From NCBI RefSeq assembly GCF_041886205.1, contig NZ_CP169029.1: 64,000 nucleotides of DNA; one strand, given 5' to 3'. Source of the stretch: Escherichia coli (GTDB taxonomy: Bacteria; Pseudomonadota; Gammaproteobacteria; Enterobacterales; Enterobacteriaceae). Numbering within the stretch: the stretch's first letter is position 1; each line of letters begins with the position of its first letter. Made by a program: the position numbers and the translations under genes. Below, piece by piece: positions 29,256-47,196 of this stretch. The notes under the pieces are model-generated. The model was not told the origin of the DNA. It saw only the letters and a list, made by a program, of their open reading frames with translations, and did not search any database.

Positions 29256-30587
29256 TTACCCCATTCTCTGCCCGCGGATCGTCATATTGCTGGTCTGCGC
29301 CAGTGACATCCCTCGAGTCTCCGGGGCAAACGCTACGGAAATCAACAAGCCAAACAGCGAGATACCCGCCCCCATTAGCATCGTGTTACTGATACCGTAA
29401 TTATTGATAAAGATCGGTAGTGCCCAGGTCGAAACAATGGTGCCAATACGACTTAAGGACATAATCACGCCCACGGCAGAGGCGCGGATATCCGTCGGGA
29501 AGAGTTCATTAGGATAGAGCCACTGCAAATTACCCGGCCCGCCAGAGAAAAAGGCATACACCGCAAAGGCCATCACTACCAGCCAGATCCCCATATCCGG
29601 GATCAGCCCCAAAACCGCCAGCGCCAGCGTCATCATGGCAAAGCTGCCAATCAACAATGGACGCCGTCCGGCAGTGTTTAGCCACAGCATCGGCGGAATA
29701 CAGCCGAGCATAAAGAACAGGCTAATCACCACGTTCCCCAGTGCCGCGTTTTTGCCAACACCCAATCCCAACAAACCAACGATTTGCGGGCCAAAGGTGT
29801 AAATGGCGAACATTGGGATCACCTGGCAGGTCCAGATGGCGGCAACAAACAGAACAAAAGGAAAATGGCGGCGATTAAACAGATCGCGAAAACGGGTTTG
29901 CTGCGGCTGCTCTTCATCGAAAGCCACCGGTTCGCCAAACAGTTTGATCATCATCTCTTCGCACTCTTTTACTCGCCCTTTGCGTAATAACCAGCGGGGA
30001 GATTCAGGCAGTTCGAATCGACCAATCAAAATCAACAAACAGGGGATCGCCGCGCTACCCAGCATCCAGCGCCAGCCGCCTTCCACATCATAAAGCCAGT
30101 AGCCGACCAGATCGGCACAGGTCGCGCCGACATACCACATGGCGGCGATAAAGCTGATGGAAAACGCCCGCTGACGGGTACTGGAGAACTCAGTGATCAT
30201 CGAAGTGGCGATGGGATAGTCTGCACCGATGACAATGCCGATAAGTACCCGCATCACCAACAGTTCGACGGGGGATGAAACAAACATCGTCGCCACCGAT
30301 ATCACGCCGATGGCGATGATATCAATGAGGAACATTTTGCGCCGTCCGACTTTATCGGAAATATAACCAAACAGCGATGTGCCAACGAACAGCCCGGCGA
30401 GCGTTCCCGCGCCCAGCAAGCCAATCCAGTCAGCGTCCAGTTTTAGCGCCGGCGTCAGTTGCTCCAGCGCCACGCCAATCATTACCAGTACATAACCATC
30501 CAGAAACGGACCACCGCTTCCCCACAGCAAAATGCGGCGGTGAATAGAGGAAAATTTAAGATCGTCAAAGTTTCTGGACGGTTGCAT
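29256..30587 (-). CDS. yaaU: MFS transporter YaaU
   Basis: 443-aa polytopic MFS-like ORF in the K-12 yaaU position. Confidence 0.9.
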   Translation of the reverse strand: MQPSRNFDDLKFSSIHRRILLWGSGGPFLDGYVLVMIGVALEQLTPALKLDADWIGLLGAGTLAGLFVGTSLFGYISDKVGRRKMFLIDIIAIGVISVATMFVSSPVELLVMRVLIGIVIGADYPIATSMITEFSSTRQRAFSISFIAAMWYVGATCADLVGYWLYDVEGGWRWMLGSAAIPCLLILIGRFELPESPRWLLRKGRVKECEEMMIKLFGEPVAFDEEQPQQTRFRDLFNRRHFPFVLFVAAIWTCQVIPMFAIYTFGPQIVGLLGLGVGKNAALGNVVISLFFMLGCIPPMLWLNTAGRRPLLIGSFAMMTLALAVLGLIPDMGIWLVVMAFAVYAFFSGGPGNLQWLYPNELFPTDIRASAVGVIMSLSRIGTIVSTWALPIFINNYGISNTMLMGAGISLFGLLISVAFAPETRGMSLAQTSNMTIRGQRMG

Positions 30588-30644
30588 GGGTTATTCCTGT
30601 TTTTTGCAATGAGAGTCAGTGCGGCGTTACGTATCAAACCAACA

Positions 30645-30932
30645 TCAGCCGTAACGGAACTCCACACCAAAGGTGCCGCGCGGGTATTCCCACTGTTCCA
30701 GCGCCGACCCCAGCCCCAGAATGCGACAGGTGCCGCACTCCAGACATCCGGCGTAATCGAAGCGCACACTGCCGTCATCCTGCTTCTTGTACAGACCTGC
30801 GGGGCACGCTTTCACCAGCAGCTCCAGCGCCTGTTTATCGGCATCGGCTTTCACAACAATGTGCGGATGCTCTTCATCGACATTGAATTTATTGACGCCC
30901 AGTTTGACGTCCACATTGACGGGAAAAGTCAT
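30645..30932 (-). CDS. fixX: Ferredoxin-like protein FixX
   Basis: 95-aa ORF with cysteine cluster; position after fixC. Confidence 0.92.
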   Translation of the reverse strand: MTFPVNVDVKLGVNKFNVDEEHPHIVVKADADKQALELLVKACPAGLYKKQDDGSVRFDYAGCLECGTCRILGLGSALEQWEYPRGTFGVEFRYG

Positions 30933-45592: not shown

Positions 45593-46741
45593 TTACTTAG
45601 CGGTTTTACGGTACTGCTCAATTAACTCGATAAAGTGGTCGAACAACGGCGCGGCGTCGTGTGGACCAGGGCTGGCTTCAGGGTGACCCTGGAAGCTGAA
45701 CGCCGGTTTATCGGTGCGATGAATGCCCTGTAACGTACCGTCGAACAGGGATTTATGCGTGACACGCAGGTTTGCAGGTAATGTTGCTTCATCCACCGCA
45801 AAACCGTGGTTCTGGGCGGTGATCATCACCACGTTTTTCTCAACATCTTTAACCGGATGGTTGCCGCCGTGGTGACCAAATTTCATTTTGACAGTCTTCG
45901 CACCGCTCGCCAGCGCCAGCAGCTGATGACCGAGACAGATGCCGAATACCGGAATATCGGTTTCGAGGAATTTCTGGATGGCGGTAATGGCGTAATCGCA
46001 CGGGGCCGGGTCGCCAGGACCGTTGGAGAGGAAGATGCCGTCTGGATTCATTTTCAGCACATCTTCCGCAGAAGTTTGCGCCGGAACGATGGTCAGACGA
46101 CAGCCTCTGTCCACCAGCATCCGCAGGATGTTGCGCTTGGCACCAAAGTCATAAGCCACAACATGGAACGGCAGCTCGTCTTCTTTTTTCGCTTCTGGCA
46201 GGCCGCCGGTCAACGTCCAGCTCCCTTGTGTCCAGCTATAGGCTTCTGCGGTGGTCACTTCTTTTGCCAGATCCATGCCATTCAGACCTGGGAACGCGCG
46301 GGCTTTTTCTAACGCCAGCGCCGCATCCGGGTTATCGCCTGCGATAATGCAGCCATTCTGTGCGCCTTTCTCGCGCAGTAAACGCGTCAGCTTACGGGTA
46401 TCGATATCGGCAATCGCCACGATGTTATGGCGTTTCAAGTATGAAGAGAGATCTTCGGTATTACGGAAGTTGCTGGCAATCAGCGGTAGGTCGCGAATCA
46501 CCAGACCTTGTGCATGTACCTGAGAAGATTCTTCATCGGCGTCATTAGTGCCGACATTGCCAATATGGGGGTAAGTAAGAGTAACGATTTGACGAGAATA
46601 GGAAGGATCAGTGAGGATTTCTTGATAACCGGTCATTGAAGTATTGAAAACGACTTCCCCAACCGCCGAACCTGTTGCCCCTATGGCCCGACCGTGAAAC
46701 TGGGTTCCGTCTTCCAGAACCAATAGCGCTGACTTAATCAA
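45593..46741 (-). CDS. carA: Carbamoyl-phosphate synthase small (glutaminase) subunit
   Basis: Matches the 382-aa CarA from (M)[11 protein letters not shown] with TTG start preceded by GGAGG; track begins at an upstream GTG. Confidence 0.95.
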
Positions 46742-46800
46742 AACACCCTCCAGAGAATATTCACTCACTTTATTTGCATATTAATTCACAATGATGACGT
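46742..46800. promoter_or_regulatory. carAB P2/operator region with two ARG boxes (ArgR sites)
   Basis: Minus-strand reading gives tgTGAATtaatATgCAaa and agTGAgTgaatATTCtct, fitting the ARG-box consensus TGAAT-N4-ATTCA, abutting the carA start. Confidence 0.75.
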
Positions 46801-47112
46801 AAATCAATGCAAATCTGCTTACCGACGAATTTCTGGCAAACGGCGGCATTCTGGAGATATGGGCGCTAAAAGTCAACTTAATGGCAGGATTTTTTATATT
46901 ATTTTGTGGCTCATGCATGTTTTACAGGCATTAAGCGACAAAAAGATCATATAACCTGTTCTGGAAAACGCTTGCGCAGCAAGAAGATTGCATGAAATAA
47001 AAACGAGCAGGGAAAAGTGGACCAAATGGTCAAAATTTACATTAAAACAACAAAAACAGAAGACAAAACATGTAATTTTTAGCACTTTCATAAAATTTAA
47101 AAGCATAATACC

Positions 47113-47144
47113 AAAAATAAAAGGGCTAGAAATTAAAGCCCTTT
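47113..47144 (-). terminator. Putative dapB terminator hairpin in the AT-rich dapB-carA intergenic region
   Basis: aaagggc / gcccttt inverted repeat with T-rich 3' flank on the minus strand; long loop makes it weaker. Confidence 0.45.
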
Positions 47145-47196
47145 ATAATTAATAAATTAAATATGTTATTTTTACATCATCATAAACATGATGTGG

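Follow-up and report, generated by a model that had tools for sequence, protein, structure and literature searches.

Where does translation of carA begin in this stretch of Escherichia coli DNA, and what lies in the few dozen nucleotides directly upstream of its start codon? The question is raised by a mechanical list of open reading frames (ORFs) for the window, i.e., the whole stretch of 64,000 nucleotides that was analysed. This list gives carA as 45593..46768 with a GTG start and a length of 391 amino acids (aa), nine codons beyond an in-frame TTG. The evidence assembled here indicates, with near certainty, that the region is the well-characterised E. coli carAB P2 operator and translation-initiation region, with UUG as the carA start codon. 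The GTG-started frame is an artefact of choosing the longest ORF. For K-12, descriptions of the tandem carAB promoters, of the ARG boxes and of the UUG start go back to the 1980s; the carA feature is, in this sense, ordinary, and nothing in the regulatory system is new.

The start codon of carA

The elements on which the choice of start codon depends are the following.

45593..46741, minus strand: carA coding sequence, 382 aa plus stop (RefSeq annotation of strains 6EVA and K-12, PDB identity)
46739..46741, minus strand: carA initiation codon, TTG (UUG in the mRNA) (sequence, RefSeq, PDB, 117/117 Enterobacterales loci)
46747..46751, minus strand: Shine-Dalgarno (SD) sequence GGAGG, with a 5-nt spacer to the carA TTG (sequence)
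46752..46769, no strand assigned: ARG box 2 (AGTGAGTGAATATTCTCT), the promoter-distal half of the carAB P2 operator, with 3 mismatches to the consensus, 3 bp from box 1
46766..46768, minus strand: in-frame GTG, the longest-ORF start, which is positions 2-4 of ARG box 2 and no start codon (ORF list, no SD)
46773..46790, no strand assigned: ARG box 1 (TGTGAATTAATATGCAAA), with 1 mismatch to the consensus, the best match in the 64-kb window
46781..46783, minus strand: in-frame TAA within ARG box 1, 14 codons before the TTG, which bounds the longest ORF (sequence)

Read along the minus strand, the region runs TCATCAT TGTGAATTAATATGCAAA TAA AGTGAGTGAATATTCTCT GGAGG GTGTT TTG ATT AAG TCA GCG CTA TTG GTT. 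Box 2 ends at 46752 and adjoins the GGAGG, which starts at 46751, and the TTG lies 10 nt further. Here, a program that opens each frame at the first NTG following a stop will include nine spurious codons (MSEYSLEGV), because the TAA within box 1 is followed by a box-2 TG that reads as GTG in frame.

The gene encodes the small subunit of the glutamine-hydrolysing carbamoyl-phosphate synthase (RefSeq WP_000597260.1). Over 601 bp, the carA region is 100% identical to that of E. coli strain 6EVA and about 97.5% identical to that of most E. coli. The RefSeq start of carA in 6EVA corresponds to window position 46741 and gives 382 aa. Alignment with the curated K-12 annotation, which the sequence-only reading had suggested as a check, leads to the same TTG: carA of K-12 MG1655 is annotated in RefSeq at 29651..30799, with 382 aa and a TTG start.

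Structural records point the same way. The 382-aa CarA chains of E. coli in the PDB start with MIKSALL, and two of them, 1cs0_B and 1bxr_B, are identical to the product of this carA; residues 10-391 of the long ORF align with residues 1-382 of 1cs0_B (E = 2.5e-261). Altogether, six distinct PDB sequences of E. coli CarA (379-382 aa) were aligned, and each alignment starts at residue 10 or 11 of the long ORF. As SEQRES entries are supplied by the depositors, the PDB is consistent with the TTG yet is not an independent proof of it, and the PDB SEQRES and RefSeq starts may go back to one shared original curation, in which case they are not fully independent of each other. Weyens et al. are said to have reported N-terminal sequencing in 1985 (Eur J Biochem). 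The supplements of the TetRP, TRAINSPOTTER N-terminomics and Ribo-RET works yielded no CarA N-terminal peptide or initiation-profiling record.

The ribosome-binding signal can be judged from the DNA itself. The 17 nt preceding the TTG form a duplex of -9.8 kcal/mol with the anti-SD sequence, which places this codon in the top 0.3% of the 6027 NTG triplets of the window. For the GTG at 46768, the same calculation over the preceding 17 nt gives +0.4 kcal/mol, i.e., no Shine-Dalgarno sequence, and the inferred P2 transcript begins only about 6 nt before this codon.

The codon next to the TTG also has to be considered, as the 1984 paper on the carA sequence reportedly left the start open as 'UUG or AUU'. 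This second candidate is the ATT at 46738-46736; E. coli is known to use AUU as a rare start codon, and a distance of 8 nt from the SD is an acceptable spacing. Nevertheless, its third base varies among species (entropy 0.5 at +6) in the manner of a synonymous site, whereas the TTG is invariant, and the PDB and RefSeq proteins begin with M-I-K rather than M-K. The review of Charlier, Nguyen Le Minh and Roovers (2018, PMC6245113) states that the carA initiation codon is TTG. Initiation at the ATT instead of the TTG is, on this evidence, scarcely credible.

The sequence-only reading had assigned the CarA N-terminus MIKSALL to the TTG at 46741 behind GGAGG, and had called the upstream GTG a misplaced start. 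The first of these statements is borne out by RefSeq, the PDB, the review, the 117 species compared below and the SD energy; the second holds as well, the longest-ORF list indeed beginning nine codons upstream of the TTG.

Conservation of the start region across Enterobacterales

Homologous loci were retrieved with a degenerate DNA pattern for an 11-residue stretch of CarA, the start codon being left out of the pattern. The search yielded 120 loci from about 40 named Enterobacterales genera, 117 of which had enough upstream DNA for comparison. Because of the shared ancestry of these 117 species, and of their selection for the exact 11-residue stretch, the counts given below are not counts of independent events.

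The codon before IKSALL is TTG at every one of the 117 loci, and all except one have GGAG at -10/-9, with a column entropy of about 0. Nearly all of these loci also carry the pair of ARG boxes at -49 +/- 1 from the TTG; the 21-bp register of the pair is kept across genera, and the core of box 1, TGAATTAATATGCA, shows column entropies of 0.3-0.7. Coding constraint sets in at the TTG. By frame position, the column entropies are 0.54/0.74/0.42 over the 27 nt upstream, with no periodicity, compared with a clearly periodic 0.24/0.18/0.84 over carA codons 13-100. A strong SD, a conserved codon and a coding periodicity that begins at this codon are all found at the UUG.

The nine codons upstream behave differently. 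They translate into 34 different peptides across the loci. The codon at -9, which corresponds to the GTG at 46768, is GTG, ATG or TTG in 85 of 109 loci (78%); the remaining 24 have CTG, GCG, CCG or TCG there, or the frame is interrupted by a stop. Twenty of the 109 loci lack any in-frame start ahead of the TTG, since indels of 1 nt between box 2 and the SD place stops at -7, -9 or -10. Most loci have a stop at -14 codons. That an NTG is usually but not always present at -9 follows from the operator, since this NTG is the conserved TG of an ARG half-site preceded by an N of the consensus.

These data bear directly on the proposal that carA is translated from the GTG at 46768 alone, giving a CarA of 391 aa. 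This GTG is the first in-frame NTG after the stop, the 391-aa form is present in GenBank on at least 40 contigs, and a possible start codon occupies its position in the 85 species just mentioned. Set against this are the absence of an SD, the proximity to the P2 transcript end, the 24 species in which the codon is missing or cut off, the aperiodic and unconserved nine-codon peptide, and the agreement of RefSeq, the PDB and the review on the TTG. The probability that we would leave to this proposal is negligible, and the GTG as sole start is effectively refuted.

A weaker form of the proposal combines both codons, with a main product from the TTG and a minor, extended proteoform made from the GTG on the longer P1 transcripts. 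The GTG is indeed in frame, occurs in E. coli and most of its relatives, and would have a leader of 73 nt on the P1 mRNA. Such dual initiation is nonetheless very unlikely: the GTG would have to work without an SD, the extension peptide is unconserved and is impossible in about one-fifth of the species, and the conservation of the NTG is fully explained by ARG box 2. Initiation at the UUG, with the GTG as part of the operator, is the reading retained here.

The start region is also unusually constant on its downstream side. Codons 2-13 of carA (46703-46738, minus strand) have a normalised third-position entropy of 0.10 across about 100 Enterobacterales species, the lowest of the 156 twelve-codon windows in the first 200 codons (median 0.57). 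The UUG is thereby embedded in a block of almost no variation, from -12 to about +39, which includes the synonymous sites of codons 2-13. A second island of low entropy (0.11) covers carA codons 36-47 (46601-46636, minus strand). Eyre-Walker and Bulmer reportedly found, in 1993, that synonymous change is reduced at the starts of enterobacterial genes. As carB at the same loci shows a weaker dip (0.32 in codons 2-13 versus 0.53 later), the dip in carA is best read as an extreme case of this general reduction, and it fits the TTG as the true start.

Secondary structure of the mRNA was considered as a cause of the frozen synonymous sites. The minimum free energy (MFE) of the 5' end of the P2 mRNA is no more stable than that of shuffled sequences (z = 0.31). 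A candidate long-range helix of the MFE structure, between the SD/UUG region and codons 39-43, shows 95.5% canonical pairs over 91 sequences, with changes on a single side only; its duplex energy of -14.7 kcal/mol ranks 10th among 47 genes of the window, and 36% of synonymous recodings do equally well or better. With an ordinary MFE, an ordinary duplex and only single-sided changes, this explanation was rejected as unsupported.

Promoters, operator and their proposed interplay

Upstream of the start region lie the two promoters of carAB and a short transcript.

46841..46876, minus strand: promoter P1 (pyrimidine-controlled), with -35 TTGACT at 46876-46871, -10 CAGAAT at 46853-46848 and start G at 46841 (promoter scan, ES003)
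46789..46841, minus strand: ES003 (Rfam RF02750), 53 nt, from the P1 start to the second base of ARG box 1 (Rfam match)
46774, minus strand: approximate, inferred transcription start of P2 (P1 start plus a 67-nt spacing)

What is known from K-12 applies directly to this locus, because the control region 46690-46890 is identical to that of K-12 at 200 of 201 positions, the one difference being a T/C upstream of the P1 -35. In the promoter scan, the -35 and -10 elements of P1 are 17 nt apart and are followed by GCCGCC GTTTGCC. Further upstream, at 46945-46978 on the minus strand, are GCGCAAGCGTTTTCC, at about -122 to -137 relative to the P1 start, and a GATC, at about -104 to -107; they may be the PurR box and the Dam site known from carAB regulation.

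The ES003 match is full length (1-53 of 53), scores 87.4 bits against a gathering score of 37 and is identical to the family consensus. ES003 corresponds to K-12 positions 29551-29603, and its 5' end is reported to coincide with a transcription start site mapped by experiment (Rau et al. 2015, PMC4676190, Table 3). In the same work, ES003 is presented as a novel intergenic transcript that has no terminator and is 133-fold less abundant in stationary phase (PMC4676190). The P1 start can be fixed at 46841, because the ES003 5' end at K-12 29551 is 100 nt upstream of the TTG at 29651. The position of its 3' end, just inside ARG box 1, might suggest a link to the ArgR/P2 operator. Another RNA element bearing the name of the gene, the 'carA motif' riboswitch candidate, is irrelevant here, as it is restricted to beta-proteobacteria and is explicitly contrasted with the E. 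coli arrangement (PMC8632094). Beyond the promoters, Rfam gives a weak match to DapZ at 47113-47168 on the minus strand (24.8 bits, below the gathering score of 56; E = 0.05). It lies just downstream of the dapB stop, which is the expected place of the Salmonella dapB 3'-UTR sRNA.

ARG boxes were searched for throughout the 64-kb window with the consensus WNTGAATWWWWATTCANW, allowing up to 3 mismatches, and dinucleotide-preserving shuffles served as a control. The window contains 16 matches, versus 8.1 +/- 2.8 in the shuffles. Box 1 is the only match with a single mismatch, and boxes 1 and 2 of carA are the only matches in the canonical 21-bp register, with TAA as the 3 bp between them. A lone ARG-box-like match with 2 mismatches (AATTAATAAAAATTCATC) lies at 57268-57285, just upstream of the espX1 start; it has no partner in the 21-bp register among the matches listed.

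The sequence-only reading had described the ARG boxes as abutting the TTG start and as lying in the next 50 bp. Both boxes do fall within 46739-46800, although the element that they abut is the SD and not the TTG itself; the location within 50 bp is likewise right, provided that it is understood as upstream of the gene, since carA is on the minus strand.

Characterisation of the operator in the literature is detailed. P2 is repressed about 50-fold by one arginine-bound ArgR hexamer, for which footprints and operator mutants are cited, through an operator of two 18-bp imperfect palindromes 3 bp apart (PMC6245113). Binding of ArgR and of RNA polymerase at carAB P2 is mutually exclusive, and the start points of P1 and P2 are 67 nt apart (PMC6245113). 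With P2 starting at about 46774, the boxes therefore cover its -10 region and start point, from about -16 to +23. The locus thus shows what defines an ArgR operator of the E. coli type, namely two 18-bp imperfect palindromes, a 3-bp spacing and an overlap with the core promoter, the last of these depending on the inferred P2 start. The boxes are also said to 'partially overlap the -35' of P2 (PMC6245113), which does not match the geometry derived here (46752-46807); either the wording is loose or a different promoter assignment was used.

These elements are best explained as follows. Transcription initiates at 46841 from P1 and at about 46774 from P2, and the ARG boxes at 46790-46773 and 46769-46752 overlap the P2 core and start point. 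As expected from the literature, arginine-bound hexameric ArgR on the pair of boxes would exclude RNA polymerase from P2, and P1 transcripts would read through the operator. Ribosomes begin at the UUG at 46741, behind the GGAGG at 46751-46747, and the product is the 382-aa CarA that starts with Met-Ile-Lys-Ser-Ala-Leu-Leu.

Two additions to this scheme can be imagined from conservation and coordinates, and together they are improbable. The retention of UUG in the frozen block could reflect an uncharacterised translational tuning of carbamoyl-phosphate synthase that needs a weak start combined with a strong SD. Separately, ES003 could be the product of a P1 polymerase stopped at an operator occupied by ArgR or by P2. 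If this roadblock were true, arginine would act on P1 transcripts after all.

Over-extended starts and comparison with known systems

The carA case is one of several in the window. RefSeq starts were mapped onto the window from strain 6EVA; beyond caiT, ORFs were matched by stop codon and annotated length, since mapping with a single offset fails there because of a 5-bp indel in the caiT-fixA spacer and of differences near the fimbrial genes. For 18 of the 49 genes compared, the longest-ORF start is over-extended relative to RefSeq. The sequence-only reading had named eight genes besides carA:

araC: longest ORF 17 codons longer than RefSeq
folA: longest ORF 45 codons longer than RefSeq
kefC: longest ORF 32 codons longer than RefSeq
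fixA: longest ORF 21 codons longer than RefSeq
caiD: longest ORF 36 codons longer than RefSeq
caiF: longest ORF 35 codons longer than RefSeq
ispH: longest ORF 28 codons longer than RefSeq
djlA: longest ORF 15 codons longer than RefSeq

All eight are over-extended against RefSeq, with a start codon at each annotated offset, but the list was incomplete, as nine more genes had been omitted:

937, plus strand: thiB, longest ORF 4 codons longer
1896, plus strand: thiP, longest ORF 4 codons longer
3481, plus strand: thiQ, longest ORF 7 codons longer
8068, plus strand: araA, longest ORF 8 codons longer
16025, plus strand: rluA, longest ORF 19 codons longer
23380, plus strand: apaG, longest ORF 18 codons longer
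38553, plus strand: caiC, longest ORF 5 codons longer
41000, plus strand: caiE, longest ORF 7 codons longer
50333, minus strand: XAC2610-related gene, longest ORF 1 codon longer

Over-extension of this kind is generic to any rule that places the start at the first NTG following a stop, whatever the locus. A TTG start alone does not lead to it: rpsT (ribosomal protein S20; 56556, plus strand) also starts with TTG in RefSeq, but its longest ORF coincides with the annotated start.

The consequences concern annotation quality only. Public databases hold the 382-aa CarA on at least 1000 contigs. The form of 391 aa has spread into them as well and is found, under GenBank accessions, on at least 40. 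For carA, the start error hides biology, because the extra codons are the ArgR operator. The 90%-identity cluster that holds both CarA forms also contains CarB proteins of 1073-1075 aa, with a representative of 1074 aa; this peculiarity belongs to the clustering, not to the locus.

Outside the control region, the window departs from K-12 at several places. A fimbrial cluster and espX1 replace IS1 between nhaR and rpsT (57303-62769), the XAC2610-related gene lies between ispH and rihC (49125-50330), and genes for a CcdA-family antitoxin, a hypothetical protein and a DUF4291 protein lie between folA and apaH (24691-26071).

At the locus itself, the closest known system is carAB of K-12 MG1655 (b0032), which has the same TTG, GGAGG, two ARG boxes, P1 and ES003, only the host strain being different. 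The carAB control region of Salmonella typhimurium is alike according to the review (Kilstrup et al. 1988; Lu et al. 1992, cited in PMC6245113); the Enterobacteriaceae loci sampled here, none of which is from Salmonella, share the box pair at -49 and the TTG. With respect to Rfam RF02750, a family described as a candidate short transcript, the copy upstream of carA starts at the P1 start. The canonical ArgR operators of E. coli (argA, argCBH, argF, argI and argR, among others) likewise consist of paired 18-bp palindromes with a 3-bp gap, 39 bp in all, that overlap a promoter. The carAB operator differs from them in its weak box 2, with 3 mismatches, and in its position downstream of a second, ArgR-insensitive promoter, and it is because of this position that carAB repression is only partial ('cumulative repression').
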